This document shows positions 18,012 to 35,830 of a DNA stretch of 64,000 nucleotides, piece after piece. The stretch is from contig JBMNGL010000013.1 of NCBI GenBank assembly GCA_050949825.1, positions 11,038 through 75,037 of the forward strand, read 5' to 3'. The position numbers and the translations under genes are program-made. The first letter of the stretch is position 1, and each line of letters starts with the position of its first letter. The notes under the pieces are model-generated. The model saw nothing but the letters and a program-made list of their open reading frames with translations. It was not told the DNA's origin and made no database searches. The stretch comes from Syntrophomonadaceae bacterium (GTDB lineage Bacteria; Bacillota; Syntrophomonadia; Syntrophomonadales; Syntrophomonadaceae).

Positions 18012-18120
18012 AAAATTCTACCGAGTACAGGTAGGCGCTTTTGGCAATCGAGAAAATGCTGAAAAGCTGATGAAAGAACTGGCCCGGGCAGGGTTCAATG
18101 CCTATGTGAAATATGAATAA
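18012..18120 (+). pseudogene. Orphan SPOR-domain gene tail (direct repeat copy 2 of the endolysin 3' end)
   Basis: Encodes KFYRVQVGAFGNRENAEKLMKELARAGFNAYVKYE plus a stop. The frame is open upstream to about 17960 but no start or catalytic domain is present. Confidence 0.85.
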
Positions 18121-18133
18121 AGGGGCTCCGAGA

Positions 18134-18168
18134 GAGTTGGTGTGTTAAGCACATCAGCTCTTTTTTTT
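18134..18168 (+). terminator. Intrinsic terminator after the SPOR relic
   Basis: gagttggtgt pairs with acatcagctc (allowing G-U pairs), followed by 8 T. Confidence 0.5.
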
Positions 18169-18349
18169 ATCCCTTTTTAGATCGGAAATGACTTGATAAA
18201 TACTCGACTTAGAGGGAATATGTGACATGCGAAAAGCCTTAAAAGCCCCTATTTCAAAGGGTTTTGGGGCGATATATATTTTTCCGCTTTTAAGTTAAAT
18301 GGCTACTAACCATGATACGAAAAGCGGGATAAAGAAAGGAGGAAACTAA

Positions 18350-19735
18350 GTGAGTAATGCGTTGTTGGATGCTGTAGCTACAAAAAATATTAATCCCGGT
18401 TTAGATCAAATGGTGAGTGTGGTTCCAATTTCGGATAAGAATAATTTTGATCAGGCCCCTCGAAAGCCTAGAGTTGCCTCTTATTGTAGAGTGAGTACCG
18501 AAGAAGAGATACAGCTGGGTTCATTGGAAAATCAAATTATCCACTATACGAACCATATCAGATCAAATAAAGAGTGGCAGTTTGTAGGGGTATTCTCAGA
18601 CAGAGGCAAATCAGGGACTAAAACTGGAAGCCGTACCGGGTTTAATAGAATGATCCGTAGAGCCATGGCCGGCGAAATCGATATTATTCTGTGCAAATCT
18701 ATTTCACGGTTTGCGAGAAATGTACTGGACACTCTAAACATTGTAAAATCACTAAGCGAAAAAGGCGTGACAGTAATATTCGAAAAAGAAGCGATAAATA
18801 CTTCGAAAATGTCCAGTTCAATATTGTTGACTGTACTCGCCTTATTTGCGGAGGAAGAGAGTCGGAACATCTCTGAAAACATTGAATGGTCATTAACAAA
18901 GCGATTTGAGAATGGAGAAGTAAGAGCTGTAAAGATACTTGGGTATGATTTCAATAAGGATAAAGAATGGATAGTAGTAGAAAGTGAAGCCGGAATTGTA
19001 AGAGAAGCTTATAGGTTGTTTCTCGAAGGCAAAAGCATGTCGGAAATTGCCGAGATATTCATTGAAAGGGGTTACAGAAAAAAGAATGGAAGAATTGATT
19101 GGGACGGAAGCGGTGTTAGGGGACTTCTAACTAATGAACGCTATACCGGTGATGTGCTTAGCAGAAAGACCTGCACTCTAGATTTTAGAAGCCATAAATC
19201 TGTAGTAAATGATGGTCACAAGCCCCAGTATTATATTGAAAATCATCATGAAGGAATTATATCAAAGGAAGATTTCCAACGGGTTCAAGATATTCTTTCT
19301 CAAAGTGTGTCTACTGCAAAAGGAATTAGGAAAAAAACATATCCCTTATCCAAAAGATTAAAATGCACTAATTGTGGGGCTAATTTTCATCGGCAGGAGA
19401 ATCCAAATGGGAAGGTTGATTGGATATGTAGCACCAGCAAGAAAAGCAAGAAATTATGCAAGATGGAGCCAATCACTCAGGAACAAATTGAAAAATTGCT
19501 AATCGAAGGCTTTTATAAAAGATATGGAATTAATGCTGCTACCGATGGCGGAGAACTAAAAAGGCGGCTAATGAAAGAGCTGATGAATGCTGAAGCGGCC
19601 CGGGACAGGGAACAAAACCTTCTAAGGGTAAAGCTAGAGAAAGTATCTAATAAAAGAAAACAAGGCTGTAATAGACGGTTTAAATATAGAGCCGATAAAA
19701 GAAAAGAGAATTGCTTTAGAAAAGCAAATTGCTGA
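18350..19735 (+). CDS. Large serine recombinase 1 (body; C-terminus displaced by an apparent +1 frameshift)
   Basis: GTG start behind aaggagg. Motifs are ASYCRVSTEEE, SRFARN, ENHHEGII and zinc ribbon CTNCGANF ... C. The last ~30 listed residues (KRKQGCNRRFKYRADKRKENCFRKANC) look like out-of-frame translation. Confidence 0.8.
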   Translation: MSNALLDAVATKNINPGLDQMVSVVPISDKNNFDQAPRKPRVASYCRVSTEEEIQLGSLENQIIHYTNHIRSNKEWQFVGVFSDRGKSGTKTGSRTGFNRMIRRAMAGEIDIILCKSISRFARNVLDTLNIVKSLSEKGVTVIFEKEAINTSKMSSSILLTVLALFAEEESRNISENIEWSLTKRFENGEVRAVKILGYDFNKDKEWIVVESEAGIVREAYRLFLEGKSMSEIAEIFIERGYRKKNGRIDWDGSGVRGLLTNERYTGDVLSRKTCTLDFRSHKSVVNDGHKPQYYIENHHEGIISKEDFQRVQDILSQSVSTAKGIRKKTYPLSKRLKCTNCGANFHRQENPNGKVDWICSTSKKSKKLCKMEPITQEQIEKLLIEGFYKRYGINAATDGGELKRRLMKELMNAEAARDREQNLLRVKLEKVSNKRKQGCNRRFKYRADKRKENCFRKANC

Positions 19736-19970
19736 AAGAGCCACTGATTGGGAGCTATTTGATAGGGATGAAGCCTTCCGAAGAAAGGCACTGGGTAAAC
19801 TGAAAGACCTACAAGGGTCGGTACAATCAATAAATAGAATATTGGATATATCTTTTATGAGAGCCTGGGTGATTCGAATTAAAATCGAGTCACCTTATTT
19901 ATTTACCGTAAAGTGGATTGATGGAAGCAAAACGGTAGCGGGGCAGTTCAGAAGGAGGTATATGTTATGA
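19638..19970 (+). pseudogene. Detached C-terminal segment of large serine recombinase 1 (+1 frame)
   Basis: The frame open from 19638 reads ...KAVIDGLNIEPIKEKRIALEKQIAERATDWELFDRDEAF ... YLFTVKWIDGSKTVAGQFRRRYML and stops at 19968-19970. This is a family-typical LSR C-terminus, and the stop overlaps ATG 19967 of the next gene. Confidence 0.7.
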
Positions 19971-21688
19971 GAATGAATACTCCAGCTGTTGTAAATCCCC
20001 GGGTTCGAGTTATTCCTGCAAAGGTTGAAACAAACAGCGATGGAGGAAATCCAGAAGGGCAGAAAAAGAAGATTGCCGTTTATGCTCGTGTTTCTACATT
20101 TGAAGAGGAACAACAATCAAGCCAGGAGCTTCAAGAAAGCTACTTTAAAGAAATGATTGCCAATAATGAAAACTGGGAATTGTATAAAGTCTATGCCGAC
20201 CATGGAGTTACTGGAACAAATACAAAAAATAGAACCGCCTTTAATGAGATGATTGAAGATGCAAAGGAACAAAAATTCGATTTAATCATAACTAAATCAA
20301 TTAGCCGGTTTGCTAGAAATACCCTTGATTGTTTGACCTATGTACGTATGCTAAAAGGCTTAAAAAAGCCCGTGGGCGTGATTTTTGACCGTGAACGAAT
20401 TTCGTCTTTGGATAGTAGCTCCGAAATGCTACTTACAATAATTGCCAGTATTAGCGAAGAAGAGAGCAAAACCATTAGTGCCAATGTCTGCTGGGGCGTA
20501 ACCAAAAGATTTTCTCAAGGTATCCCCCATATCCCCACAACTTATTTTCTAGGATATGACGAGGATGAAGAAGGCAATCTTATTATAAATGAAAAGGAAG
20601 CTAAAACGGTAAGACGGATTTATAGAGAACTTCTTGCCGGGAAAGGAACCGTGCTAATTGCAAAAGGATTGACCAAGGATAAAGTTAAAACCGCCAGGGG
20701 AAACACCAAATGGACCAGCGATTCGGTTCTTAAGCTGCTACGAAATGAGAAATATGCCGGGCATGCCCTTTGCCAGAAGTCGGTCACCCTTGACCCCCTT
20801 ACCCATAAACGGGTGAGAAATAAAAACCACAAACCTCAATACTTTATCAGGAATCATCATCCGCCTATTATTTCGGAAGAAGACTGGAATGAAGCTCAAA
20901 AAGAACTAGACCGGAGAAGTAAAATGCTCCACGACCCGGGTGGAAAATATCGAAGGGCTTATAGCGGCAGGTCACCTTTTTCTAATATGTTTTTTTGCGG
21001 AACATGTGGAATGCCAATAATCCGGAGAAGAATTACTTCAAGAAATAAAGAAAAAAAATATCACTTTACTACTTGGCATTGCCGGGTAGCATCCCATAAA
21101 TATAAAGCAGATTTCAAATGTAACGCCAAGTATATCTGGGAAGAGGTTATTGAGAGGGCGTACAATGAAATGCTGCTTAAAATGTCCAAGGAAATTGACC
21201 AGATCCGTGCCGAAGGTGAGGAAGCCATAGAAGATGTAGATCTATCAGCAGATGAGACCAGAAGATTGAAAGAGCTGGATGAGATTATCAAACGGATTGG
21301 CAATCGAATAAGTGAGCTATCCATGAGGGAGAGCGTAACCAATGATCAAATTTATGATGCTACCTTAAGGAATCTAATTTACGAGTCGCAGATATATCAG
21401 CAAGAATATGAGGCACTGCTTAAAAGCCAGGACGAAAGCAACTATATAAGAAAGAACCTGGAGACGCTGATTAAACACCTACAAACCATAGAGGATTATG
21501 AAACCTTTAATGCCAACATCTTTAAAGAGATTGTAGAAAGCGGTATTTTTCATGAAGATTACGAAATAGAATTTATATTTAAATGCGGCATAAGAAGAAA
21601 AGCCTACGGATGGAGAAGAGGGAAAAACCCGGTGGAACCAATGGAATCAGGCATTGAGCAAGAAATAGACTATAAAAACAGCCTGTAA
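19967..21688 (+). CDS. Large serine recombinase 2
   Basis: 573 aa. Motifs are IAVYARVSTFEEEQ, SRFARN, RNHHPPII, zinc ribbon CGTCGMPI ... C, then a coiled coil and C-terminal beta motif YEIEFIFKCG. Confidence 0.9.
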   Translation: MRMNTPAVVNPRVRVIPAKVETNSDGGNPEGQKKKIAVYARVSTFEEEQQSSQELQESYFKEMIANNENWELYKVYADHGVTGTNTKNRTAFNEMIEDAKEQKFDLIITKSISRFARNTLDCLTYVRMLKGLKKPVGVIFDRERISSLDSSSEMLLTIIASISEEESKTISANVCWGVTKRFSQGIPHIPTTYFLGYDEDEEGNLIINEKEAKTVRRIYRELLAGKGTVLIAKGLTKDKVKTARGNTKWTSDSVLKLLRNEKYAGHALCQKSVTLDPLTHKRVRNKNHKPQYFIRNHHPPIISEEDWNEAQKELDRRSKMLHDPGGKYRRAYSGRSPFSNMFFCGTCGMPIIRRRITSRNKEKKYHFTTWHCRVASHKYKADFKCNAKYIWEEVIERAYNEMLLKMSKEIDQIRAEGEEAIEDVDLSADETRRLKELDEIIKRIGNRISELSMRESVTNDQIYDATLRNLIYESQIYQQEYEALLKSQDESNYIRKNLETLIKHLQTIEDYETFNANIFKEIVESGIFHEDYEIEFIFKCGIRRKAYGWRRGKNPVEPMESGIEQEIDYKNSL

Positions 21689-21834
21689 CCCTGGTAGCCT
21701 TAAATAGCTAAAATATTTAAAGCCTATATAAACAAGAAAACTCCGTAAACCTATAAAGATTGTACTTGCAATAGTTTGATATGGATGCAAACATACGAAC
21801 AAATGCAATCGTTGATAGGTGGGGAGTTTTTTTT

Positions 21835-24800
21835 ATGGATGAAAAAAATAAGGCCATGTGGGTACACACCCTGTGGGATCCACTTGAAAAAATAGACCAG
21901 AGTCCACTTCATAGTAAAAAAGACGGTATTAAGGTCGCGGCCTATTGCAGGGTGAGCTTAGACTCGCTTAATATATCAGAATCACTGGAGAGCCAGGTTA
22001 GTCACTATACCCATTTTATCGGCAGAAAAAAGAATTGGAAGTTCGTCGGCATCTATTTTGATAATCTAGTTTCAGGCAGAAAGGCATCACTAAGACAAGG
22101 CTTCACACGGATGCTCAGGCACTGCGATGAAGGGAAGATAGACCTTATACTAGTCAAAAATGTATCCAGGTTCTCCAGAAATGCAAAAGAGCTTATTGAG
22201 ATTGTTGAACGGCTAAAAGAAATTAACGTAACGGTCTATTTCGAAATGGAAAATATCGAGAGCACTAGAAGTGATACTACCTATCTTCTAAATATATTTG
22301 CTAGCATCGCCCAGGCCGAGATAGAAGCGATATCTTACAATATAAAATGGAGCTATGAGAAAAGGACACTTGAAGGTAAAGCTGATATTGGAGATATGTA
22401 TGGATATGATAAAGCCGAAGTAAATGGTGAAACAATAATTAAGATTAATGAAGAAGCTGCTCAAATTGTAAGAGAGATTTTTGTGATGTACCTCAACGGG
22501 TATAGTTCTTATAAGATAGCTGGAGAACTAAGTAGAAGAAATATTAAGACTAAACAGGGAAAAAAGCTTTGGAATTCAAGCACCATTACAGGCATTTTAT
22601 CAAATATTTCATATACAGGAGATATATTGGTTAGAAAAACAATTCAAGATATGCTGACAAACAAAATACGATCAGCCAAAGGTATAGAAGATCAGTATTT
22701 TATTGAAAATCATCATCCAGCAATTATAAGTAAAGAAGTATTTGAACAAGTACAAGAAGAGATAAAGAAAAATGGAAAACCTAGTTCCCCTTATACTCGT
22801 AGATATAATCCGTTACTTAAACGCGTTCATTGTGGGAATTGTGGCTATAAATTTAACAGAAATAAAAATAGGGGTAAAGATTATTTTAAGTGTGTTAGTA
22901 AAATGACCAATAAGAGCCTTTGTGTAAGTCCTGTGATTAAAGAAGATGACATAATAAAAATAATGCTTGGAGGATTCAAAGAACGGTTTGATATAGAAAA
23001 TCCGAAAATCATAAAGATGCTGCAAAGATTTTTAATCAGAATAAATCAAAATGATCATTTTGAATTCCACCGCCTCAAAGCTTTGAACCAGATTCAATTA
23101 GCAAAAAGCTTGCGAGGCGTTGAATACACAGATGAAGATATCGAGCAAATGGAAGAAAGTTATAAGGAATTTGAAAAAGAACTAGTAAAAATAGAAGATG
23201 ATAGGAAGTTCCGATTAGAAGCAATTAAATGGTTGGATACTGTAGAAAATTTTGAAGCCTTCGAAAACCAAGCCACAATTGAATATATGCGTGGCTGGAT
23301 AAAAGAAATTACCATATATTCATTAAACGATTATAAAATCCACTGGATTGATGGAAAAAACACAGAGATCGGAAGTTGTATATCAATTAAACCAGAACTT
23401 GAAGAGCCTTTGGTAGATGAGAATTTAATAGAATTACAGATCAAAGGTTCTTTTGAAGAAAATAAAATCACCTTAGAGAAAGGAGGTGATATACAGAGTA
23501 AGGAGGGAGTTATGGTGCAAGCTGCAAAAAGGTTAAAGTCTGAAAAGCTAAAGTCTGAAAAAAAGTCTGATTTAATGTTTTTAAATATAAAAAAGCAAAT
23601 AAGCAATTCTGTAGTAATGCAAACTACTGTGCCTATACCTAGTAAGAAAAAACTGAAAGTAGCAGCTTATATTCGAGTTTCCACAGAAAGCGACCAACAG
23701 GAAATAAGTTTAAAGACGCAATATACGTATTTTTTGTACTACATTTTGCGGGATCCTCAGTATATTCTGGTTGATATCTATATAGATGATGGAAAGAGTG
23801 GGCTGACTACAAAAGGAAGGACAGAATTTAATCGCTTAATAGACGATTGCGTCGATAGTAAAGTGAATTTAATCATCACAAAATCCTTATCTAGATTTGC
23901 TAGGAATACAGTAGATACTCTCAAATGTTTAAATCTTCTAAAAAATCTAGATCCTCCGGTAAATGTGTGGTTTCAGAAAGAAAATCTTTATTCTTTAGAT
24001 GAAAAAAGCGATCTATTAATAAAACTACTTTCAGTTATTGGGCAGGAAGAAAGTTTGAATATGGGCGAGTCTATTGCTTGGGCGAAAAGGAGTTTAGCTC
24101 AAAGAGGAATAGTTAATCCCGGGCGATTAGCTTACGGCTATTATTACGGGGAAAATAAAGAATGGTTAATAAATAAAGAGGAAGAAAAAGTTGTAAAAAG
24201 AATTTACAAAGAATATCAAGAAGGAAAGAAAATTCAAAAAATAGCCAAGGGTCTTGAGAGTGAATCAATCCCATCTCCAAGTGGACGAAAAAATTGGGAT
24301 CCAAATACAATTAAGGATATATTAATTTCAGAGACTTACAGAGGCAACTATGTTTTTCAAAAATTTTATAATTCGTCAGGTTTAATAAAGAAAAAAACAA
24401 AAAACCAAGGTGAATTACCAATGTATTTTATTGAAAATCATCATCAACCTATAATTGATAGTGAAGAATGGGAAAATATTCAAGAAATAATGAAAATTAG
24501 AGATAAGGAGAGGCAAGATAAAATAGAAAAATATCTACCAGATACTAAAAAGAATGAAGCGTTTTCTAAAAAACTATACTGTGAAAAATGCCATAGTTAT
24601 TTAGGATATATAAGACAGGTAGATAGGGGAAAAAATAATAAGGGAAATAGGCATTGGAGATGTTATAGTGCAAGAAAAGGTAAAGGTTGTGATTCTATAC
24701 ATTTAAAACAGGAGTATATAGAGGAAAACTTTTCTCAATGCTTAATGGACATAAGGCATAATGAAGCTTTTAGAAAATATATCAATCAATATAAAGAGTC

Positions 24801-25500
24801 AGTAAAAATCACTCCAGAGGAAGAAAAATTAAGAGAAAGGTTAAATTTAGAAAGAGAAGAATTAAATCAAAAGTTATATGCAGAAGTAGAAGGAGAGCTT
24901 AATAAAAAAGGCAAAGATGCAAAACAAGTAGATAAATTGATTGATAAGATTATGAAGTTACGACAACAGATAAATACGTTTACACAAAGAGAAGAACAGC
25001 TTGAGTTAATTGAAGAAGATATAGCTGCCATAATGAAGAGTTTAAAAGACTATAAAGATAATAAAAAAACAGGCACAGGATATTATATGAAAGCGCCTAA
25101 ATTTAATAAAGAAATATTTGAAGAACATATAGAAAAAGGAACCGTTGCTGGTGATGGGAAAATTATATATAAATTTAAATCGGGATTTGAGTGGGCAGCA
25201 CCAATTGACTATTCAAACTTTCAAATAAAAGCAAGAAGAAAAATTGCGGCAAAGAGAGCTAAAGAAAAAGCAGAGTATTTAAAGGGGCCTGAGGTAACAG
25301 AATTATTAGAATATTGTATAGAGCCAAAGACTTTTAAAGAAATGCAGAATTTTTTAGGTAAGTATACAGCCTATCATTCTTTTAGAAAACACATACTTGT
25401 GCCTTTGTTAAAACAGGGAATTGTAAAGATGACCATACCGGATCAACCCGTTCATAGATTACAAAAATACTATTCGGTTGACAGGAAGAAACGCAATTGA
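21835..25500 (+). CDS. Fused double large serine recombinase (modules 3 and 4 in one ORF)
   Basis: The frame is uninterrupted from 21781 to 25500. ATG 21835 behind aggtgggga is preferred as the start. There are two full sets of catalytic, recombinase and zinc-ribbon motifs, with Ser codons at 21955-21957 and 23680-23682. An internal SD plus in-frame ATG lies at 23501-23514. Confidence 0.85.
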   Translation: MDEKNKAMWVHTLWDPLEKIDQSPLHSKKDGIKVAAYCRVSLDSLNISESLESQVSHYTHFIGRKKNWKFVGIYFDNLVSGRKASLRQGFTRMLRHCDEGKIDLILVKNVSRFSRNAKELIEIVERLKEINVTVYFEMENIESTRSDTTYLLNIFASIAQAEIEAISYNIKWSYEKRTLEGKADIGDMYGYDKAEVNGETIIKINEEAAQIVREIFVMYLNGYSSYKIAGELSRRNIKTKQGKKLWNSSTITGILSNISYTGDILVRKTIQDMLTNKIRSAKGIEDQYFIENHHPAIISKEVFEQVQEEIKKNGKPSSPYTRRYNPLLKRVHCGNCGYKFNRNKNRGKDYFKCVSKMTNKSLCVSPVIKEDDIIKIMLGGFKERFDIENPKIIKMLQRFLIRINQNDHFEFHRLKALNQIQLAKSLRGVEYTDEDIEQMEESYKEFEKELVKIEDDRKFRLEAIKWLDTVENFEAFENQATIEYMRGWIKEITIYSLNDYKIHWIDGKNTEIGSCISIKPELEEPLVDENLIELQIKGSFEENKITLEKGGDIQSKEGVMVQAAKRLKSEKLKSEKKSDLMFLNIKKQISNSVVMQTTVPIPSKKKLKVAAYIRVSTESDQQEISLKTQYTYFLYYILRDPQYILVDIYIDDGKSGLTTKGRTEFNRLIDDCVDSKVNLIITKSLSRFARNTVDTLKCLNLLKNLDPPVNVWFQKENLYSLDEKSDLLIKLLSVIGQEESLNMGESIAWAKRSLAQRGIVNPGRLAYGYYYGENKEWLINKEEEKVVKRIYKEYQEGKKIQKIAKGLESESIPSPSGRKNWDPNTIKDILISETYRGNYVFQKFYNSSGLIKKKTKNQGELPMYFIENHHQPIIDSEEWENIQEIMKIRDKERQDKIEKYLPDTKKNEAFSKKLYCEKCHSYLGYIRQVDRGKNNKGNRHWRCYSARKGKGCDSIHLKQEYIEENFSQCLMDIRHNEAFRKYINQYKESVKITPEEEKLRERLNLEREELNQKLYAEVEGELNKKGKDAKQVDKLIDKIMKLRQQINTFTQREEQLELIEEDIAAIMKSLKDYKDNKKTGTGYYMKAPKFNKEIFEEHIEKGTVAGDGKIIYKFKSGFEWAAPIDYSNFQIKARRKIAAKRAKEKAEYLKGPEVTELLEYCIEPKTFKEMQNFLGKYTAYHSFRKHILVPLLKQGIVKMTIPDQPVHRLQKYYSVDRKKRN

Positions 25501-25520
25501 ATATCTTATTAAGAATGAAA

Positions 25521-25575
25521 CCCACTGAGTAGCTAGATAGAAATTATCAGGCTACTTGGTGGGTTATTTTTATTT
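25521..25575 (+). terminator. Intrinsic terminator after the recombinase array
   Basis: cccactgagtagc (25521-25533) pairs with gctacttggtggg (25551-25563), followed by ttatttttattt. The sequence type recurs at 30581-30651. Confidence 0.6.
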
Positions 25576-25579
25576 GCTT

Positions 25580-27345
25580 GCATTCCTGTAATGCTTAAGA
25601 ACGATCTTTGAAAAAAGAGACGCCCATCAATACAATTGAATTGTGCTGATCCGCGACAGAAAGGCACAAAACAAAAGATTGAGGAGGCGTCCCTATATGA
25701 AAAGTACACAAAACGAGAAGATTTCGCAAATTAAATTTGAGACCCTGGTTGTTGGAATTGACATTGGTAAAGAGACCCACTATGCAAGAGCCTTTGATTA
25801 CAGAGGGATAGAGCTGGCCAGGCTGTTGAAATTTAGCAACACAGACCAAGGATTTGAACGATTGGACCAGTGGATGCGTGATATATGTAAGCAGCAAGAG
25901 AAGACTGAGATCATTGTCGGCTTTGAACCCACAGGACATTACTGGTTTACGCTAGGGGATCATCTCAAACGCCAAGGACACAAACTGGCCATAGTCAACC
26001 CGTTCCACGTCAAGCGAACCAAAGAACTGGATGACAATAGTCCTACCAAGAACGACCGTAAAGACCCGAAAACTATCGCCATGTTGGTGAAAGATGGACG
26101 TTATCGGGAAGTGTACATACCCGACGACATCTATCAAGAACTAAGAGAAGCGGTATCAGAACGGGAACGGCTGCAGGAGCAATTGACTTCTATTTACAAC
26201 AGGGTCGTTAGATGGCTTGACATCCGGTTTCCAGAGTTCACAACAGTCTTCAAGGACTGGAGAAGAAACGCAGCATTGATGGCTCTCAGAAGCTTTCCAA
26301 CACCAGAGAAGGTTATGGAAATGGGTGTTGATGCGATTGTCGAGACGTGGAGAAAGCAAATGAAGCGCGCCAGCCTAAAACGTGCAGAAAGACTGGTAAA
26401 AGCGGCAAGTAGAAGCGTAGGTCGAACTAGCGGTAAAGTGGCCTCCGAGGCCAGCTTGCAAAACCTGCTGGCAGAATATGACCTGTACTGTCAGCAATAC
26501 GACAAGCAAGAACAGCTCATGCAAGAACTGCTGATGCAAGTACCTAATGCTGATAAACTCCTGGATATCAAAGGGGTTGGCCTGATAACAGCAGCCACCT
26601 TTGTCGGCGAAGTAGGCGATATCAGTAGGTTCCAAGATCCTAGACAAATACAGAAGCTGGCTGGACTCAATCTGGTAGAGAACAGTTCCGGCAAACACAA
26701 GGGAAAGACCACTATCAGCCGTAGGGGTAGAAGACGACTGAGACACAGCTTATTCTTTTCCATGATTGCCATGCTGGGAAAAAACCAAGAGTTTCGGCTA
26801 CTTCACCAAAGAAACCTGATGCGGGAAAATAATCCGCTCAACAAGATGCAGTCCATCATCGCACTCTGCGGTAAGTTGATCCGGGTCTTCTTTGCAATAC
26901 TAACCAAAGGCGTTGATTACAGCCCAGAGAAGATGCTGGGGGACATGGAGCAGTCAATTAGAGTAGCCGCCTAGATTGGCAATAGAGACTATACCATAGC
27001 GATTGTTATCCCGTTATTGCCAGCATAAGATGGCTACCCGCAGTCACTTAAATGCAGCGATGAACGAAGCTTCAAGAACCAAATATCACGATAAAAACGG
27101 GAGCCGGGACAGTCAGGTTGAATTTCACCATAAGGGCAATGACCCCGCTTAGGAGCATGACTGACGTTCCACCTCTTGGATAGGCAGGACGAAGGAATTA
27201 AGGGCTTTAGACCCAGGAAGACATGGGAGGGTTGCTGCCAGGAGATGGTGTGGAATCCCACTGGCCACAATACAAGAAACCAAGCGGCTTAGCGGAGCTC
27301 TACTCACCATCACCCATAATTACACATAGATGTAACAAACAAGAG
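25580..27345 (+). mobile_element. IS110-family insertion sequence (boundaries approximate)
   Basis: Contains the transposase below and long non-coding flanks. No terminal inverted repeats were seen, as expected for this family. The left limit is set by the preceding terminator and the right limit by the IS256 end. Confidence 0.5.
25697..26974 (+). CDS. IS110-family transposase (DEDD N-terminal domain plus Transposase_20 C-terminal domain)
   Basis: LVVGIDIGKETHYA at the N-terminus. LLDIKGVGLITAATFVGEVGDISRF ... LAGLNLVENSSGKHKGKTTISRRGRRRLR at the C-terminus. ATG 25697 lies behind gaggagg. Listed ORF is 25643..26974. Confidence 0.9.
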   Translation: MKSTQNEKISQIKFETLVVGIDIGKETHYARAFDYRGIELARLLKFSNTDQGFERLDQWMRDICKQQEKTEIIVGFEPTGHYWFTLGDHLKRQGHKLAIVNPFHVKRTKELDDNSPTKNDRKDPKTIAMLVKDGRYREVYIPDDIYQELREAVSERERLQEQLTSIYNRVVRWLDIRFPEFTTVFKDWRRNAALMALRSFPTPEKVMEMGVDAIVETWRKQMKRASLKRAERLVKAASRSVGRTSGKVASEASLQNLLAEYDLYCQQYDKQEQLMQELLMQVPNADKLLDIKGVGLITAATFVGEVGDISRFQDPRQIQKLAGLNLVENSSGKHKGKTTISRRGRRRLRHSLFFSMIAMLGKNQEFRLLHQRNLMRENNPLNKMQSIIALCGKLIRVFFAILTKGVDYSPEKMLGDMEQSIRVAA

Positions 27346-27349
27346 ATGG

Positions 27350-28858
27350 GCTGTCCGTAAACAAAATGTAATCGTGAGAAAACAAGCGATACTGGAAGTA
27401 TAGCTTAGTTTATTAAGGGAGGTTATCAAATGGCAAAATCAAAGAACATTCTCACGGACAAAGAAATGGAGCTGGTAAGTCTGCTGATGCAAGACTGCCA
27501 AAGCACCGGGGACATTCAGACGAAGTTGAAACGCTTGTTTGCAGGAACGATTGAACAGATGCTTGAAGCCGAAATGGATGAACATTTAGGCTATGAAAAG
27601 CATTCGGTAGAGGGCAACAATAGCGGTAATTCACGCAATGGGTACAATCACAAGAGCATTATCAGCGATTATGGTGAAAGCGAAGTCGCCATACCCCGCG
27701 ACCGTAACGGTGAATTTGAACCAAGAATTCTTGGAAAGCGACAAACACGAACCGATGAAATTGAGCAGAAGATAATGGCGATGTACTCTAAAGGTATGTC
27801 ACAGCGCGACATAGAGGATAATCTGCGCGAAATATACGGGGCAGATATCTCACAAACCTTGATTTCAAAGATCACAGATAAAATTTTACCGGAAGTAAAT
27901 GAATGGCAAAACCGTCCGCTGGAAGCGATTTACCCTATAGTTTACTTTGACGGCATTATGTTCAAAAGCCGTAAAGACAGCCAAATTATTAACAAGTGTG
28001 TCTATTCAGTCTTGGGCATTGATATGAACGGCCAGAAGGATATTTTAGGGATTTGGATAAGCGAGAACGAGGGTGCTTCATTTTACGCAAGCATTTGCTC
28101 CGACCTTAAGAAACGCGGTGTTACAGACATTTTTATCGCTTGCCACGATAACCTGAAAGGGCTTGGAGAAGCCATTAACGCAGTATTTCCAAAGACTAAG
28201 CAGCAGTTATGCATAGTACACCAAATCCGCAATTCAACTAAGTTTGTGCAATACAAGGACAGAAAGCAAATCTGTGCTGATCTCAAGAAAATCTACGGCG
28301 CAGTAAATCTTGATGATGCGGAGTATGCAAAAGAAGAGTTTCGGGAAAAATGGGATAAAAAATACCCATCGATTATGCGCTCCTGGGATGCAAATTGGGC
28401 TGAACTTACTACATTTTTCAACTATCCCGAGCAGATAAGGCATTTAGTCTATACGACCAATGCAGTCGAAGCATATCACAGAATGGTGCGCAAATTCACG
28501 AAAGCAAAGGCGATTTTCCCGACTGACGACTCAATAAGAAAGGTTGTTTTCCTGTCGGTCAAGGAAATCGCGAAAAAATGGACGAAGCCGGCGCGAGATT
28601 GGGCAATGGCATACAGCCAGATTATGATTTTCTTTGCAGATAGATTTGCGGCTTAAAGGCCGCCTGGGGGCTCTGCCCCCAAACCCCCGAGATTTATCCG
28701 CTTGGGGCTTACCGGTGAAACGAAAAACAGCGAGCAATAAACCCGCTGTTTCACCGTATAAGCCGTAGCATGCGTGGGGTTGCTCCTCAGCATTGCCCTG
28801 TTTGTGCTACTATAAAAGTATTAACGAAATTTTGGATGATTATTCCGTTTACACTAAA
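27350..28858 (+). mobile_element. IS256-family insertion sequence (boundaries approximate)
   Basis: The transposase gene is flanked by imperfect inverted ends around ccgtaaacaaaatgtaatc (27355-27373) and the reverse of gattattccgtttac (28838-28852). Confidence 0.45.
27430..28656 (+). CDS. IS256-family (Mutator-type) transposase
   Basis: 408 aa. YPIVYFDGIMFKSR ... GIDMNGQKDILGIWISENEGASFY ... CIVHQIRNS ... TTNAVEAYHRMVRK are the family-typical blocks. Confidence 0.9.
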   Translation: MAKSKNILTDKEMELVSLLMQDCQSTGDIQTKLKRLFAGTIEQMLEAEMDEHLGYEKHSVEGNNSGNSRNGYNHKSIISDYGESEVAIPRDRNGEFEPRILGKRQTRTDEIEQKIMAMYSKGMSQRDIEDNLREIYGADISQTLISKITDKILPEVNEWQNRPLEAIYPIVYFDGIMFKSRKDSQIINKCVYSVLGIDMNGQKDILGIWISENEGASFYASICSDLKKRGVTDIFIACHDNLKGLGEAINAVFPKTKQQLCIVHQIRNSTKFVQYKDRKQICADLKKIYGAVNLDDAEYAKEEFREKWDKKYPSIMRSWDANWAELTTFFNYPEQIRHLVYTTNAVEAYHRMVRKFTKAKAIFPTDDSIRKVVFLSVKEIAKKWTKPARDWAMAYSQIMIFFADRFAA

Positions 28859-28864
28859 GCGTGT

Positions 28865-30028
28865 TCAGAACCATTTGCTGCTTTTAATTAGGTCGTACCA
28901 GTTGAAGTTCATTCCCATAAAACGCTCGATTTCATCAATTTTTATTGTGCTCAATTTACCTTCTAAAATTTTAAACTCAGAGCGAATTTCTTTAATGAAG
29001 TTATAAAGTTGCTGCTTGTCCATAAATAGCGATAATGAAAATATAAGAGAATAAATTCCTCGACGGGCATTTAGACGTTTGTTTTTTCGAGAAGTATTTA
29101 ATCTCCTTCTATGAGCCGGATTAACAGCATATGGTAATTTGTGTCCAAAATTCATGAAGTTATCATCAATGGGGACCCTTATCTTTGAAAGATAGAATCT
29201 CTCGTTGTGAGCACACGTATTTCTGAATAAACTTAGTACCTGTAAAATACGGGAGGTATTTATAATATGTAGATCATCAGAGATGCAAGAGAAATTATTA
29301 ATACCTAGAGTTTTTATCATATGGAGTTGAACATCTTTCTTTTGTAGTGTAAATAGATGGCTGACATTTCCAAAAGTTAAGACATTCATTAAGATCCACA
29401 TTGGCATGTAACCATGCTGCTCTAAGTAAGATTTTATTGAATCATTTTTATTTTTTCTTTGCTGCCCAAGTGTTCGGTATACCGTAGAGATGTAATTGTC
29501 ATAAACTGAAAGTCTATCCAATGTAGAAAATTTTCCATTTGGCCGAGTTCTATGTACTGTTGTGCTGACAATTCCATAACTATCGATATTATGTATGCTG
29601 TAAGAAGAAGTCAAATCGTAATATTTTCTCCGAAGATATTCACTGTCTCTATGAAGAATTGATTTTTCAACATCTGAATTATCAGGGTTACCGTTGAGAT
29701 GGTAGTTGTAGAAAGATTGTACAATCTGGTTTTTTATAATTTCTTCAACCCTTAATATTTCTTTCAGAAAAATGAGGCGAAGGTTTGCGTCAAAGATTAA
29801 TAGCGCCTCTAACTCACTTAATCTAGTACCAGTTTTGTATTTCTCAACACTACTGGATCCCTGGTAAAGGAAGGGGTCTTTATAAGCGTTAATCAAATTA
29901 TAATAATTATATTTCTTAAGAAGCTCTTTTTCCTCGCTTCCATTAGGAATAGTCATATTCCGGCTTCTTAATATTTTGATTCTTTCGCTGTGTGTAGAAA
30001 AATATTTTTCCAAAATTAATTCCCCCAT
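28865..30028 (-). CDS. Abi_2-family abortive-infection protein (AbiD/AbiF-like)
   Basis: 387 aa and AT-rich. LLIFDANLRLIFLKEILRVEEIIKNQIVQSF ... NTCAHNERFY matches the Abi_2 pattern as I recall it. No convincing SD precedes the start. Confidence 0.7.
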   Translation of the reverse strand: MGELILEKYFSTHSERIKILRSRNMTIPNGSEEKELLKKYNYYNLINAYKDPFLYQGSSSVEKYKTGTRLSELEALLIFDANLRLIFLKEILRVEEIIKNQIVQSFYNYHLNGNPDNSDVEKSILHRDSEYLRRKYYDLTSSYSIHNIDSYGIVSTTVHRTRPNGKFSTLDRLSVYDNYISTVYRTLGQQRKNKNDSIKSYLEQHGYMPMWILMNVLTFGNVSHLFTLQKKDVQLHMIKTLGINNFSCISDDLHIINTSRILQVLSLFRNTCAHNERFYLSKIRVPIDDNFMNFGHKLPYAVNPAHRRRLNTSRKNKRLNARRGIYSLIFSLSLFMDKQQLYNFIKEIRSEFKILEGKLSTIKIDEIERFMGMNFNWYDLIKSSKWF

Positions 30029-30720: not shown

Positions 30721-30742
30721 TTATCCTTTTAGAATCATGGAG
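30721..30742 (+). other. att-like junction core, copy 1
   Basis: ttatccttttagaatcatggag matches 35809-35830 at 19 of 22 positions. The two sequences diverge completely after ...catggag. Confidence 0.55.
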
Positions 30743-30773
30743 AAATGGCATATTTGTATTTAACATTAGCAGG

Positions 30774-31115
30774 ATGAATGAGTTTATTGACGCCCATTCA
30801 GAGCAATTGACTACTGATGTTATTGATGTTGCCTATTATTATAATTTAGTGAAGCACCATGAGTTTAAAGATGACTATGTTCGGCAGGCTGATCTGGAAC
30901 GTCCGGTTATCCTGGCTGAAATTGCGCCAGACAGGTTAGAGATGGGTATGGGAGTAAATCCGAACATTTACTATGAGCGGGGATATAATTTAATTGACGG
31001 ACATCACCGGGTTGTCAAAGCCCACTGGTTGGGCGTCAAAACATTGCCCGCTTATATTTTCCGCATGGAACAGCATATAAATTTCCTGGCGCAAGGTGTT
31101 ACTGCCACCCCATAA
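30774..31115 (+). CDS. ParB/sulfiredoxin-fold (ParB-like nuclease domain) protein
   Basis: 113 aa from ATG 30774. YNLIDGHHRVVKAHWLG contains the DGHHR motif of ParB N-terminal-like domains. Listed ORF is 30699..31115. Confidence 0.6.
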   Translation: MNEFIDAHSEQLTTDVIDVAYYYNLVKHHEFKDDYVRQADLERPVILAEIAPDRLEMGMGVNPNIYYERGYNLIDGHHRVVKAHWLGVKTLPAYIFRMEQHINFLAQGVTATP

Positions 31116-31199
31116 TGTCCAGCAATAGACGATGTTAAATGTCCAAAAACTGACGGACGTAGTGACCGAAGATATTAGCCCCATTGGGGGCAGGGAGAA

Positions 31200-32000
31200 C
31201 TAACTCAATTCTCCCTGAACAACAAACTTCACCATGTGATCATCAATAATATTTCGATTGTTTTGTGCTCCATATATCAGGCAATGAGTACAAACCTTGT
31301 TTACCATTCTGGCAGCTCCACTAGAAAACTTAAATATCTCATCTACAGCATTATCCGAAAAAATATCATGGTCGGCACCGGCATAAGCCAGGTGTGTTTT
31401 AATGTATTCGCCTACTTCTGCCCGGTCCAGATAAGGCAACTTGCACTGCAGGTCAATGCGCTGCCTGATTGCTGCGTAAGATTGGAGTTTAAGCCGTTCC
31501 CAGAGTTCGTTTTGTCCTACCAGGATTAAAGCCATCGGGCTCTGTGCATCCATTTTGAAGTTTAGTAGGAAACGGACTTCTTCCAGCATTTCTTTGTCTA
31601 AAAGATGGGCTTCATCTACGATAACCACGGGCTCTAGATGATGGATGCCTTGCATAAGTTCAATCTCTTTATGTAATTGGCGTTTGGCATCGCCCCGATA
31701 GAACTTGGCCTCACAACCTAATTGTTCAAGGAGACCTTTGTAAAAATGCCGGGGGGTCAATTTGGAATCAGCCAGGTACATCATCATAAACCGGGATGTA
31801 TCTAAAGTTTCTTTAAGCTTACGTATGGTGGTAGTCTTGCCGGTTCCACAGTCCCCGGTTAACACTGCAAACATCTGGCGCTGAGCGGTATATTCTAAAC
31901 GTCCCAGGGTTTCTTCCAGCATATGCGATTGATACAACTGATCAGTGGGGATATCCCTGGAAAACGGTGTTCTTTCCAGACCATAAAAACTCTCAAACAT
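31200..32000 (-). CDS. AAA+ ATPase, transposition helper (TniB/ExeA-like)
   Basis: Walker A GDCGTGKTT and Walker B VVIVDEAHLL. Its start overlaps the transposase stop by 8 nt. Confidence 0.85.
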   Translation of the reverse strand: MFESFYGLERTPFSRDIPTDQLYQSHMLEETLGRLEYTAQRQMFAVLTGDCGTGKTTTIRKLKETLDTSRFMMMYLADSKLTPRHFYKGLLEQLGCEAKFYRGDAKRQLHKEIELMQGIHHLEPVVIVDEAHLLDKEMLEEVRFLLNFKMDAQSPMALILVGQNELWERLKLQSYAAIRQRIDLQCKLPYLDRAEVGEYIKTHLAYAGADHDIFSDNAVDEIFKFSSGAARMVNKVCTHCLIYGAQNNRNIIDDHMVKFVVQGELS

Positions 32001-33348
32001 GGCTTTCCCCCTCCTTCCTTACCTTCCGGTAGGAGACAGCAGGGATTTGGTGTTCTTTACGCTCCTGGTTTTTCCTGGCGGCTGCATTTAGTAGCCTTGA
32101 AGAATTAGCTGGAGCCTTCTGTAAATGCTCGGGTAGTTTAGGCCTGGGAGCACTCCGCTCTCCGATAACCAGTTCTTTAGCTTTAAAAGGTTTGTGGCCT
32201 TCGTATTCAATAGTAAGTTCGCTGATATCGGCTGGATCATAGATAACATCTACCTTGCAGCCAATAAAGGTTAGTCCTACTTCGTATTTTTTCCCCGCAA
32301 AACTGATGCAGCCTGCCTTATCTACTTTTCTTTCTTCGCAATGGAGGAAAGCACTGGCTATTGTTTCGGGGTCTAGAAATTTTAATGCTTTCCTGTCACT
32401 GCGATAAGCAGTCTGAGGACTAATGTTTCCTTCTAACCCGGAATGGGGCTTGTTCTGATAACACTCCTCCAACCAGACCTCAAATAGCTGGTTTAATTTA
32501 TCCAGGGTTTGAGGTTTCTCCAGAACCGCTTCAGCCAGGAAGGAATCTACTACCCGGTTAAATCGTTCTGATTTCCCGGTAGCTTCAGGGGAATAGGGCT
32601 TGGCAAAGAGTAAGCGAATCCCCATTTTAGCGCAAGCTCTTTTCATCCATTTGGTTCGATACTGGCTACCGTTATCGAAATATACTTTCTCTGGTACCCC
32701 ATATTTTAAAATGGCCTGGCGGAAAGCATCTTCTACGATTACCTGATCCAAAGTGGGATAGAACTGACCATGCAAAATATATCTGGTCGCATCATCCACG
32801 AAGGTCACAAGATAAACCTGCTTCTTTTTCCCGTCTTTGCCTATGGGTAGGTATGGGCCATATTTTATGTCGGAATGCCAAAGTTGGTTACGGTATTTCT
32901 TCTGGTAACGCCGGGCAGCTGTACCGGTATCGGCATACATACGCATGTGCCGGGCGCTGTAACCTCGTTCGGCCAGTTTCTCTTGCAGGGTACTGCGCTT
33001 GATTTGTCCTGGCTCTACCACCCCTTCCCATTCTAGAATTTGAATAATCTGTGCAATGCTACGGCTCGGTACCTGCCTGCGCAAAAGGATTGCCTGTTCC
33101 AGGATGTTAACCGGTATTGCTTCGTCACTTCGTCGCTCGCCCTTACCTTTGGGTTTGAGTCCGCTAAAACCATCCTTCTGATACTGGGCCAGGTATCTGC
33201 GCAGGGTACGTTCGGATATGCCGGTCTGTTCGCATATCCTGGCTTTAATCTGCCTGGCCTGAGCGCTATCCAGCCCTTCGGCCAGGAGTGGGGACAGGAT
33301 TTGCACTCGCTGCTCGGCAATTTCGTCTGCTTTCTTTTGGTCTCTCAT
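31993..33348 (-). CDS. DDE transposase/integrase (rve core, Mu-like)
   Basis: N-terminal HTH region. WHSDIKYGPY ... VTFVDDATRY ... YFDNGSQYRT ... PYSPEATGKSERFNRV forms the D,D(35)E core. Confidence 0.9.
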   Translation of the reverse strand: MRDQKKADEIAEQRVQILSPLLAEGLDSAQARQIKARICEQTGISERTLRRYLAQYQKDGFSGLKPKGKGERRSDEAIPVNILEQAILLRRQVPSRSIAQIIQILEWEGVVEPGQIKRSTLQEKLAERGYSARHMRMYADTGTAARRYQKKYRNQLWHSDIKYGPYLPIGKDGKKKQVYLVTFVDDATRYILHGQFYPTLDQVIVEDAFRQAILKYGVPEKVYFDNGSQYRTKWMKRACAKMGIRLLFAKPYSPEATGKSERFNRVVDSFLAEAVLEKPQTLDKLNQLFEVWLEECYQNKPHSGLEGNISPQTAYRSDRKALKFLDPETIASAFLHCEERKVDKAGCISFAGKKYEVGLTFIGCKVDVIYDPADISELTIEYEGHKPFKAKELVIGERSAPRPKLPEHLQKAPANSSRLLNAAARKNQERKEHQIPAVSYRKVRKEGESHV

Positions 33349-33397
33349 GCTGATTACCTCCTTTTTCAGGTTTCAGCATGAGTGTAAAGCTATACTG

Positions 33398-33883
33398 TTA
33401 TGGACAAAAGGCGAAACGGGTATGTATCCATAAATTTAAGTTGGCTATGGGGCGGACAACTCTGGCTAGCCATCCCGGAGCATCCCCTACATAATGCCAA
33501 ATCCTTTGGAGCTTGGACTCAGGAAGATCGGATTTATCTTCCACAGATTCTTTGCCATAACGGATTGTAATTGATTCCAGGCAACCTTGAAAGTAATCGA
33601 CCTTCTCATTAAACCATTTTCTCCATCGGTTCAGAGTAGATTCATCAGAGATAACACTAAGCTCTGAATCATTGCTAACCACTGCCTCAATACTTTCACT
33701 AACATGGAGTTTGTATGGCACAAGCATATCCGGTAGTTCGTGGTGGATACGGTTACATTCAATGCATCTTAACCTACGAATGATTAAAACTATCTTTTCC
33801 CCTGAGGCAGTGATACATTTTCTCTGGCGGCTACCGATTACTTTTAATTTTCCACTACAACACGGGCAGGGAAGTTGCTCCAA
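33398..33883 (-). CDS. Zinc-ribbon protein of the transposon (DUF6431-like)
   Basis: CPCCSGKLKVIGSRQRK ... RRLRCIECNRIHHELPDMLVPYK. It is the first gene of the element. The N-terminal 48 codons are duplicated at 38189-38332. Confidence 0.65.
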   Translation of the reverse strand: MEQLPCPCCSGKLKVIGSRQRKCITASGEKIVLIIRRLRCIECNRIHHELPDMLVPYKLHVSESIEAVVSNDSELSVISDESTLNRWRKWFNEKVDYFQGCLESITIRYGKESVEDKSDLPESKLQRIWHYVGDAPGWLARVVRPIANLNLWIHTRFAFCP

Positions 33884-34092
33884 GCTCCTAACAAAAAACT
33901 CCCTTATCGGGGTTTAAATCTAATTGATAATTTGTTACAATTACCATACCTTTGGGGGACGCTTCTGGTGCTTCTGTTGGAGCAGTTGCACATTTAACAG
34001 AGGCGTCTTTTCCTTTCCCTAAGATATGGTCATTATATCCAGCAATTCTCGGTCAGGCAATACCGTCAGCTTTTGGACGGTTTAGGTTGGCT

Positions 34093-35570
34093 GTAACAGG
34101 GTATCCAAAGCTTGGCTCAAAGAGGCATCATCACAAGGATAACTGATATTTATGGTTATCACATTACCAAGAATAGAGAATGGCATATTGTAGAAAAAGA
34201 GGCGGCGGTTGTTCGTTTAATGTATCAGCTTTATGCTGCCGGGAAAAGCATTTTTGAAATTATTAAGTACTTAAATAAAAAGAAAATCCCAAGTCCTAAT
34301 GGTTATGAATTTTGGAATTACCATACGATAAAACAAATTTTAGGAAGTGAAAAATATATGGGGGGACTATAATTTTCAGAAGACCTATACTCCTAGCATA
34401 GTAGGAAGCAAGCCTAGGGTTAATCGTGGCCAGGTGCCCCAATATTATATAGAAAAGCATCATCAGCCGATTGTAGATAAAGACCTCTATAAAAAGGTGC
34501 AGGAAATTCTAAATCAAAACAAAAGGACAATTACTTGGGAGGCCAGAAAAGATGGAACCGCAGGGAGAGAATTGTACTATCAAAAGTTTTATTGCAGTGA
34601 GTGCGGGGGCTTAATCTCCAGGTATAGTAGCAGCTGCTATGATTCCAAAGAAGGAAGTACATGGAGATGTAGAAACTCAAATAAAATAGCCAGCACTACG
34701 TGTAATGTTACACGGATGATACTGGAGCAATACTTGGATTATAATTTTGTGCTTACTCTTAAGGCGATTAAAAAGAGTCATGAATTTAGAAATTTGATGA
34801 GAGATTATTTTAAATTCTTGGAACTTAAGCCAGAGGAACAAAAGCATATGAAATTCTTAGAAGAGCAAACAGACAAGCTCAATCAAGAGCTATATTAGGG
34901 CCGTGGATACCCAGGTTCAAAAAAATGGCCAAGACACAAACCAGATTAATCAAATCACAAGTGACATTGTTAACCTGCGTCAGCGGCTTCAGGTCTATTG
35001 GGATAGGATGGAAAAGCTAAAGAGAGATCGTGAGCGCTTGGAAAAGCTACTGAATTACTGTGAAAAAATGAAGCCTCTATCTTTTAAAAAATTTCACCAC
35101 ATGCGCCCTCGCATCAAGCCAGGGGATAGTATTTATTCAACTACAAATAATGCAAGGAATAGTAGCTATATTGATCCGGCAGGTGAGGATTATTTTCCGG
35201 AAGATGTGTTTAGGGAACAAGTTATTAGCGGAACAATTGACGGTGATGGCCGCATAAAATACAAGTTTGCTGAGGGTATTGAGTTTGGGGTTGATATGAT
35301 ATATGAAGAGTATAAAAAAACTTTTGAAAAGGAAAAAGCAAAGATCCAGCTTGAAGAACTTCTTAATTCCAGTGAGGTAATGGAAACGAAGGAATTCTGT
35401 AAAACTACAAAAACAACTAAAGAGATACGCGAACCCATCTAGGCATTAAATCGAATAACTCCTTTGATAAACGGATACTCAAACCACTTTGTAAAGCCGG
35501 TAAATTGAAACAGGAGCAAGGAAACACCTCTAAGTGTTATCTTTATTCTTGGGTTGAAGATGAAAATTAA
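34093..35570 (+). pseudogene. Decayed large serine recombinase (fifth copy; 5' truncated, at least 3 frameshifts)
   Basis: Begins at ...SLAQRGI, just after where the catalytic domain would end, abutting the transposon end. It is collinear with module 4 of the fused recombinase (EKYMGDYNFQKTY vs ETYRGNYVFQKFY; EKHHQPIV vs ENHHQPII). Frame breaks lie at the G-run 34360-34365, near 34890-34905 and at the C-run 35434-35436. The stop is at 35568-35570. Confidence 0.85.
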
Positions 35571-35624
35571 ATAGTCTTGATGGGATCGAATTAACAAATA
35601 ATAAGGATTAGTGCATTTGAAAAA

Positions 35625-35808: not shown

Positions 35809-35830
35809 TTATCCTTCGCGAATCATGGAG
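35809..35830 (+). other. att-like junction core, copy 2 (island / comM boundary)
   Basis: ttatccttcgcgaatcatggag. comM-coding sequence follows immediately. Confidence 0.6.

Follow-up and report, generated by a model that had tools for sequence, protein, structure and literature searches.

A 64,000-nucleotide stretch of a contig assigned to a Syntrophomonadaceae bacterium (the window) contains a gene that encodes two complete large serine recombinases (LSRs) in one polypeptide. The gene is the last of a recombinase cassette at the right end of a siphovirus-like prophage, where it follows two further LSR genes, LSR-A and LSR-B; its halves are called modules C and D. The longest open reading frame (ORF) of the fused gene, at 21781..25500 on the forward (+) strand, to which LSR-A, LSR-B and all parts of the fused gene also belong, has no internal stop over 1,239 codons, and Pfam detects the Resolvase (PF00239), Recombinase (PF07508) and zinc-ribbon (PF13408) domains each in two non-overlapping stretches along it. 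The fusion is real and not an artefact of assembly: homologues with both modules are numerous, and the pair is conserved in many prophages of Bacillota. A preliminary description of this DNA had proposed one uninterrupted frame with two complete LSR modules and two separate sets of domains. Both are found, and every motif that it quoted lies where it was said to lie, the two catalytic serine codons included.

Two recombinases in one reading frame

Hidden Markov models (HMMs) made from sequences of the family locate module C at amino acids 51-536 (21931..23388) and module D at amino acids 624-1141 (23650..25203). The hallmarks of an LSR thereby occur twice: a Resolvase domain with its nucleophilic serine and catalytic arginines, followed by PF07508 and by a four-cysteine PF13408 zinc ribbon with a coiled-coil insertion, which is long in module D; module C ends in a WIDG motif. 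The landmarks of module C are AAYCRVS at amino acid 53 (the codon of catalytic Ser59 is 21955-21957), SRFSRN at 129, ENHHPAII at 309, CGNCGYKF at 351 and the end motif YKIHWIDGKNTEIG at 518 (nt 23332). Those of module D are AAYIRVSTESDQQ at amino acid 628 (with the codon of Ser634 at 23680-23682), SRFARN at 704, ENHHQPII at 885 and CEKCHSYLGY at 934. Modules C and D are ~32% identical to each other and are joined by a linker of ~80 residues (23404..23640; amino acids 542-620). The departure from the LSR norm of one catalytic module per chain of ~450-700 amino acids is that this chain, of ~1,221 amino acids, has two.

The limits of the ORF are as first described, with ATG 21781 at its head; the true start of the gene is instead likely to be ATG 21835, and the product is therefore ~1,221 amino acids long. 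GGGGAG lies 8 nt 5' of ATG 21835, and the N-terminus read from there, MDEKNKAMWVHTLWDP, fits the family consensus MDxxDKxMWVxTLWDP; no Shine-Dalgarno (SD) sequence is found upstream of ATG 21781. At the other end of the protein, Pfam recognizes a Fic-like_C winged helix (PF21247) at amino acids 1171-1230 (25291..25470), as a tail on module D. A role as an additional domain for binding DNA or a partner is possible; we know of no description of this winged helix on LSRs. The tail is kept in the closer relatives, and it is also present on a truncated D-type remnant in locus L038. A hairpin followed by a T-run, read from the sequence as terminator-like (25517..25572, +), comes after the gene and is kept in L038.

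The two halves as enzymes

Both halves look like working, catalytically competent enzymes. In alignments of 29 and 70 sequences the catalytic residues S59, R130 and R133 of module C and R632, S634, R705 and R708 of module D are invariant, as are all eight zinc-ribbon cysteines (C351, C354, C371 and C381; C934, C937, C961 and C970). In both modules this invariance covers the nucleophilic serine, the arginine that flanks it and the two arginines of SRFxRN. In close pairs of genes the ratio of nonsynonymous to synonymous substitution rates (dN/dS) is 0.13-0.17 for module C and 0.12-0.32 for module D, and that of the linker is 0.19-0.20 (0.23 and 0.47 in two more distant pairs). By sequence, the solved chains closest to modules C and D are the catalytic domains 3g13 and 3guv, respectively; the top Foldseek matches are the full-length SPbeta, phiC31 and Bxb1 integrase-DNA complexes.

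AlphaFold2, run with a 70-sequence alignment, returns two confident LSR bodies, with long helices inserted in both zinc-ribbon regions (mean predicted local distance difference test score, pLDDT, 81.7; predicted template modelling score, pTM, 0.49). The sole long segment of low confidence is the linker, residues ~542-620, which is predicted to be a disordered tether of ~80 residues. Two bodies that are not fixed in orientation to each other would be expected to give such a pTM. Across the family the linker is ~75-140 residues long, variable in sequence and poorly conserved.

One half could in principle have kept just the LSR fold and serve as a non-catalytic accessory, for DNA targeting or for control of directionality. 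Module D carries the extra winged helix and an unusually long coiled coil, so the halves are not equivalent, which speaks for this notion. Nevertheless, the nucleophilic serine and the catalytic arginines are invariant in both halves of every sequence examined, and dN/dS is equally low in C and D; loss of catalysis from either half is accordingly a quite unlikely interpretation.

An old and widespread family

A near relative of the gene lies in L038, an independent locus from a metagenome-assembled genome (MAG) that is collinear with 18053-25576 of the window at 92.8% nucleotide identity and in which the fused frame is also open (1,222 amino acids). A word-indexed protein search with the fused protein returned 85 homologues, all labelled just 'recombinase family protein' in the database. 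Most of the 85 are 1,150-1,350 amino acids long and extend over 96-99% of the query at 33-65% identity; the two-module proteins among them are 32-65% identical to the query, mostly at 93-99% coverage. Named sources are Anaerotalea, Proteiniclasticum, Cytobacillus, Alkalihalophilus, Heliorestis, Desulfitispora, Litchfieldia, Virgibacillus, Proteinivorax and Solibacillus. An exhaustive HMMER search of 1.84 billion representatives gave 2,409 matches at E <1e-30, among which ~23 clusters (50% identity) of at least 1,000 amino acids span both modules. In all, 89 two-module proteins of ~1,070-1,350 amino acids, with identity down to 32%, were collected from the 85 homologues, the top 150 HMMER matches and the fetched loci. 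Isolate genomes with the fused gene include those of Proteinivorax tanatarense (a complete chromosome), Litchfieldia, Solibacillus, Niallia (Niallia hominis) and Robertmurraya (Robertmurraya beringensis); other copies are in MAGs and in IMG/VR viral contigs. Megablast of the fused gene against phage and plasmid collections gave zero matches, so these hold no annotated near relative, and a single-sequence scan of viral contigs was also empty; an alignment-based scan did find members.

In a neighbour-joining tree of 181 modules, all 37 fused C halves in the sample group together in one clade, as do all 37 D halves in a second, and the subtrees of fused C and fused D are largely congruent. The fusion is old, a single event that took place before the Bacilli and Clostridia phage lineages diverged.

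These comparisons dispose of the simplest objection, that a sequencing or assembly error has run two adjacent LSR genes together, or that a stop codon between them was lost very recently, which would make the gene a fresh pseudogene. A sequence resembling a ribosome-binding site, together with a start codon, does lie in the linker, and the adjacent LSR-A does have a frameshift in the window. However, the preliminary description had pointed to 23376-23640 as the place where a stop or frameshift would betray two ordinary genes, and none is there; a missed stop is excluded because the frame is open in L038 and in the 89 two-module homologues, which come from genomes, MAGs and viral contigs and diverge to 32% identity. 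The fused C halves form a single clade and so do the fused D halves, the two subtrees being congruent, and purifying selection extends over the whole gene, linker included. Judged from its conservation across the family, the artefact is already refuted and scarcely credible.

Dense arrays of fused genes occur in two of the genomes: three fused double-LSR genes lie inside 25 kb in Niallia hominis (L001, 703-20446), and several, plus N-terminally truncated remnants, in Anaerotalea alkaliphila (L082, 1-20493). Such arrays indicate that related elements have repeatedly accreted at one locus.

The cassette and its duplication

The window opens in the prophage, in which the large terminase, portal, major head, major tail, tape measure, holin and amidase genes are recognizable. 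The right end reads holin, amidase, a helix-turn-helix regulator, LSR-A (18350-19735), LSR-B (19967-21688) and the fused C-D gene last. LSR-B, identified by Pfam, HMMs and the tree, is 573 amino acids long (19967..21688) and is a paralogue of module D; LSR-A is a paralogue of module C, with a span of 18350..19967 when its frameshifted end is included. Relative to its 92%-identical orthologue in L038, LSR-A has a 1-nt insertion near 19640 that puts its last ~106 residues, including FTVKWIDG at 19914, in another frame (window 19630-19967). This is either gene damage here or a sequencing error. The preliminary description had drawn a parallel between the end motif of module C and that of the first recombinase: the counterpart, FTVKWIDGSKTVAG, exists at nt 19914, but not in frame with the main ORF of LSR-A.

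The A-B-CD order is kept in 14 loci besides the window. Six (L007, L038, L081, L083, L085 and L086, L083 being a complete isolate chromosome) repeat the whole series of holin, amidase, A, B and fused CD; the others are L001, L084 and the viral contigs L091, L092, L093, L099, L100 and L141. Two candidates for departures from this scheme were set aside. P0116/P0146, considered as a natural 'split' of the fusion, is not one, since P0116 is one more paralogue, in first position, of a cassette of five modules with a fused gene still at its end; P0107, considered as a stand-alone C, is on a 1.9-kb contig and is uninformative.

Pairwise BLAST resolves A, B, C and D as four orthologous groups. Between the window and the Robertmurraya and Niallia cassettes, identity is 47% for A with A, 52% for B with B, 40-44% for C with C and 37-40% for D with D, against 29-42% across types. 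The neighbour-joining tree pairs A with C, and B with D, as sister groups. With A a paralogue of C and B a paralogue of D, the cassette is a duplicated recombinase pair, and the simplest history would be that a two-gene pair was duplicated, that the second copy was fused once and that the halves then co-evolved.

The A and B genes overlap by 4-17 nt in most relatives, and gene overlap is the usual signature of translational coupling. The two pairs would thus have been brought together in different ways, the first (A, B) by translational coupling through overlap and the second (C, D) by becoming a single polypeptide. The correspondence of A to C and of B to D, where the genes of one pair overlap and those of the other are fused, is evidence of the Rosetta-stone type that the members of a pair act together physically. 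It also offers a handle on a long-standing puzzle, which is why some mobile elements have two or three LSR genes, or even more.

An internal start in the linker

The linker of the window gene contains two SD-like islands and an in-frame ATG (23479..23514). The first island, AAAGGAGGTGA at 23479-23489 (including aaggaggtga, 23480-23489), is 22 nt from the ATG at 23512-23514, which encodes Met578; the second, aaggaggga at 23500-23508, brings AAGGAGG (23500-23506) to 5 nt before it. The two SD-like sequences and the ATG had been picked out beforehand as what looked like a ribosome-binding site and start, and all are present, but only the second SD is correctly spaced. The ATG is the probable internal start of a free module D of 662 amino acids.

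The pattern (A/G)AGGAGG-N5-8-ATG/GTG recurs in six genes of the closer clade (the window, L038, L084, L085, L081 and L082), which represent four lineages, at the corresponding place in the linker, where the encoded residues vary: KEGVM, KEESKM, EEGAKM, EEDVNV and EEDANM. In L081 methionine has given way to valine, yet the codon, GTG, is still a possible start. AGGAGG occurs in just 2-3 copies per 3.7-kb gene, and in all six genes one of them is in the linker. The codons that make up the linker SD are always GAG and AAG, and GAG accounts for only 24-34% of the glutamate codons of these genes. A further conserved island of the linker reads ATCACCT..GAGAAAGGAGGTGAT. Conservation at the nucleotide level within a fast-evolving linker supports a functional ribosome-binding site, and it strengthens the suggestion, already made, that the locus gives both products: in the closer clade it probably yields full-length C-D and a free D from Met578. 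The site had also been taken for the retained ribosome-binding site and start of a formerly separate gene. The SD and the start are there, but with a fusion that is old and single they are more likely to have been kept by selection than to be a recent leftover.

The internal start raises the possibility that the locus is a polyprotein, or an operon in disguise, in which separate C and D, made through the internal start and/or by cleavage of the linker, are the functional species and the full-length protein has no special role. Known multi-LSR systems do consist of separate polypeptides (PMC4701971), and to this and the conserved SD and start of the closer clade can be added the predicted disorder of the linker, which would make it accessible to proteases; Pfam and NCBIfam show no protease or intein signature, however, and distant members of the family lack the internal start altogether. 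None of ~90 diverged genes has a stop in the linker. A stop 5' of the internal start would be nearly neutral if the linkage were irrelevant, so its avoidance is hard to explain on this basis, and independent action of the two modules as the whole purpose of the locus is improbable.

How a two-in-one recombinase might work

Serine recombinases act as tetramers, the halves of which rotate by 180 degrees relative to each other. The synapse has four subunits, two per DNA site (gamma-delta resolvase and LSR complexes are examples), and an LSR lies on its half-site with its C-terminus at the outer end and its N-terminal catalytic domain at the centre. A tether of ~80 residues is ample to join the end of C to the start of D on one site, which is the geometric basis of the heterodimer reading. 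The best explanation overall, which we hold to be more likely than not, is that C-D is a selectively maintained gene for two competent LSRs on a disordered tether, which would act, by inference, as a single-chain heterodimer on an attachment (att) site. One chain would provide both subunits for the two non-identical half-sites of one att site. The four subunits of the synapse would come from two C-D chains, or from C-D plus an A-B dimer, A-B being the unfused, translationally coupled counterpart of C-D. In the closer clade, free module D made from Met578 would adjust the D:C ratio. The tether would either cross the rotation interface (in cis) or join subunits of the same rotating half (in trans).

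A more ambitious version, in which the C-D tether spans the rotation interface and C-D together with A-B builds a fully heteromeric synapse with a dedicated module for each half-site, is tentative and distinctly less likely. If it were true, it would let these phages use completely asymmetric attachment sites, and it could explain their insertion in varied coding sequences, including fixed codons of the recombinase genes of rival prophages.

The other placement of the tether has C and D on different att sites within the same rotating half, with the link driving or stabilizing synapsis. A flexible linker of 80 residues would be long enough for this. Given the subunit-rotation mechanism (PMC11607074), a tether so placed would stay off the rotation interface, and the topological problem of the cis model would be avoided for that reason. 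That identical phage ends are joined to differing target genes (see below) could also fit a dedicated target-binding module. Bridging in trans is rather unlikely. A fused gene that is the only recombinase of its element would then have to supply two copies that span the synapse head-to-tail, a possible arrangement but a more complicated one.

Several observations weigh against the single-chain heterodimer in its simple form. The pTM of 0.49 means that the relative placement of the two modules is not confident, and an intramolecular C-D dimer is neither supported nor excluded by the pLDDT and pTM of the model. Cassettes are not uniform: in L087 (7412-12191) and L088 (725-9140) the holin and amidase are followed by a five-module cassette of [534][486][572][fused 1193] amino acids, and in L003 (3806-7063) and L090 (7192-10392), which represent a subfamily of ~1,070-1,090 amino acids, the fused gene is the sole LSR gene. 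A fixed stoichiometry, with A-B on one site and C-D on the other, consequently cannot be general; the lone genes of L003 and L090 suggest that the fused protein can be the only recombinase of an element. Internal SD and start are absent from the distant fused genes of L001, L002, L003, L083 and L007b, so free D is not essential or intrinsic to the architecture. The frameshift in LSR-A and the insertion sequence (IS) elements beside the cassette may mean that this copy is decaying and no longer fully functional. Finally, the left end of the prophage is beyond the window, and asymmetry of the half-sites of the phage attachment site (attP) is a prediction.

The lone fused genes of L003 and L090 adjoin opposite-strand polysaccharide genes (UDP-glucose dehydrogenase, glycosyltransferase, VanZ and epimerase), and a similar cell-wall polysaccharide neighbourhood flanks L038, L084 and L086.

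Relation to known systems

To our knowledge, every large serine integrase characterised so far is a homomer, built from copies of one chain. A stable, natural covalent pair poses the question of how it passes through subunit rotation, and whether the tether limits or directs that rotation. It also provides, ready-made, a scaffold for recombinases with two different half-sites as their targets, something that integrase engineers are now trying to build by hand.

Full-text searches of open-access papers found no description of a natural fused double LSR. The preliminary description knew of no fused tandem LSR; none is described in the papers found, but the architecture is common in databases, where searching for serine recombinases of >1,000 amino acids with two catalytic domains returned many. 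The fused architecture and the logic of the cassette appear to be unreported, the sequences being already in the databases. NCBIfam has no dedicated model for a fused LSR, and the best matches, CcrB, XisF, CcrC and CcrA, are far under their cut-offs (212 bits against an equivalog cut-off of 900 for CcrB, 94 against 700 for CcrA, 125 against 900 for CcrC), so the fused protein is not a Ccr orthologue.

CcrA/CcrB is the textbook heteromeric LSR system: the two proteins of SCCmec, encoded by adjacent and different LSR genes, are needed together, as Misiura et al. are said to have found in 2013. C-D resembles it in placing two different LSRs side by side, and CcrB is its best NCBIfam match, but CcrA and CcrB are separate proteins. 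Each half of C-D resembles the SPbeta SprA/YokA, phiC31, Bxb1 and A118/LI integrases in its order of N-terminal domain, recombinase domain, zinc ribbon and coiled coil. The halves match canonical phage LSR structures by Foldseek and phmmer, and the role of a prophage integrase near an att site is shared. Those canonical LSRs, however, are single chains of ~450-620 amino acids that form homodimers and homotetramers on quasi-symmetric att sites, whereas here two diverged modules are joined.

The serine integrase triplets of streptococcal integrative and conjugative elements (ICEs) of the Tn1806-like type cluster by position, implying an ancestral multi-gene module (Ambroset et al. 2016, PMC4701971), and their integration disrupts genes, including genes of another resident element (PMC4701971). 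The cassettes described here are similar in having co-oriented LSR genes at the end of the element, with paralogues that cluster by position, and in their insertion into genes, those of resident elements among them. They differ in that the ICE triplets are three separate polypeptides on conjugative elements, whereas here the element is a tailed prophage and the distal two modules are one polypeptide; the number of modules is three in the ICE sets and usually four, at times five or two, here. That LSRs tolerate covalently attached partners is indicated by a phiC31 integrase fused to its recombination directionality factor (RDF) (PMC5737554) and by a split-intein integrase (PMC6868429). These constructs are artificial, and what is joined to the integrase is a cofactor or intein halves rather than a second complete recombinase.

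The phage end and its targets

The phage-side arm of the right junction is marked by a ~22-bp motif, TTATCCTTTTAGAATCATGGAG, at 30721..30742 (+). In L038 and L091 the motif lies ~150-370 bp past the fused gene. In the window it is displaced by a ~5-kb segment without counterpart in L038 (25577-30633), which contains transposase genes of the IS110 (25643-26974) and IS256/Mutator (27430-28656) families and an Abi_2 gene for abortive infection (28865-30028, -). An Abi_2 gene also stands directly past the fused gene in L085, so that Abi_2 may belong to the cargo of the phage, the IS elements alone being recent insertions. The motif or variants of it occur in L038 (13853-13874 and 15888-15909), L091 (13959-13980), L081 (13045-13066), L082 (4010-4031 and 15888-15909), L099 (17608-17629), L141 (9857-9878), L084 (10696-10717), L085 (12389-12410) and L001 (9989-10010).

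What lies past the motif differs from locus to locus and is unrelated: a truncated comM, galE or UDP-glucose dehydrogenase gene, or a resident LSR gene that has lost its N-terminal part. The host genes that it abuts, at phage ends that are identical or nearly so, are comM in the window, galE in L091 and UDP-glucose dehydrogenase in L038, and recombination of attP with a bacterial site (attB) by C-D is suggested, indirectly, only by these abutments. Five loci of the P0012 type have the phage end joined to a module-2-type LSR gene of a resident element, at exactly the same codon each time (before EKENIDT); in L038 the interrupted gene is a fused one of the L091 type, entered in its D half. The phages appear to form stacks in which one is inserted in a recombinase gene of another. 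No convincing core that would define the crossover dinucleotide is shared between the end motif and the LSR-gene targets. A search of the junction flanks for a common target motif gave only a weak GAAGAAG at ~+17 in comM and galE, which we do not take as evidence.

To the right of the junction in the window lies a decayed resident element (30743-35830) with a ParB-like ORF, a TniA/TniB transposon and a frameshifted LSR remnant. It is closed by a second copy of TTATCCTTTTAGAATCATGGAG (35809..35830, +), which abuts the 3' part of comM from 35831. The host comM gene is disrupted by the stack of elements: only the 3' part is present (35831-36505; Mg_chelatase profile positions 88-203), followed by dprA (36675-37811).

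Other features of the flanks and of the prophage

Directly right of the first end motif is a small ORF (30775-31132) with a ParB/sulfiredoxin-like 'LIDGHHR' and no Pfam match at E <0.001. The transposon (31133-34078, -) encodes a DUF6431 protein, a TniA-like protein with rve and Mu-transposase_C domains and a TniB-like AAA_22 ATPase; it is bounded by 16-nt inverted repeats (31141-31156 and 34063-34078) and interrupts the decayed element beside the module-2-type LSR remnant (34079-35442), which is frameshifted and has no Resolvase domain. Two other readings of the sequence that begins at 30743 were rejected. It is not the terminus of the adjacent transposon, the inverted repeats of which are at 31141 and 34078, and 30743-31132 is not an LSR remnant, having no similarity to LSRs and containing instead the small ORF with the ParB-like DGHHR motif.

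In the late region of the prophage, among the tail genes and just upstream of the tape measure gene, a 596-amino-acid ORF (8707-10497) matches the PHROG 'reverse transcriptase' and has an HNH-like stretch at its C-terminus; from its sequence it looks like a reverse transcriptase of the group II intron type.

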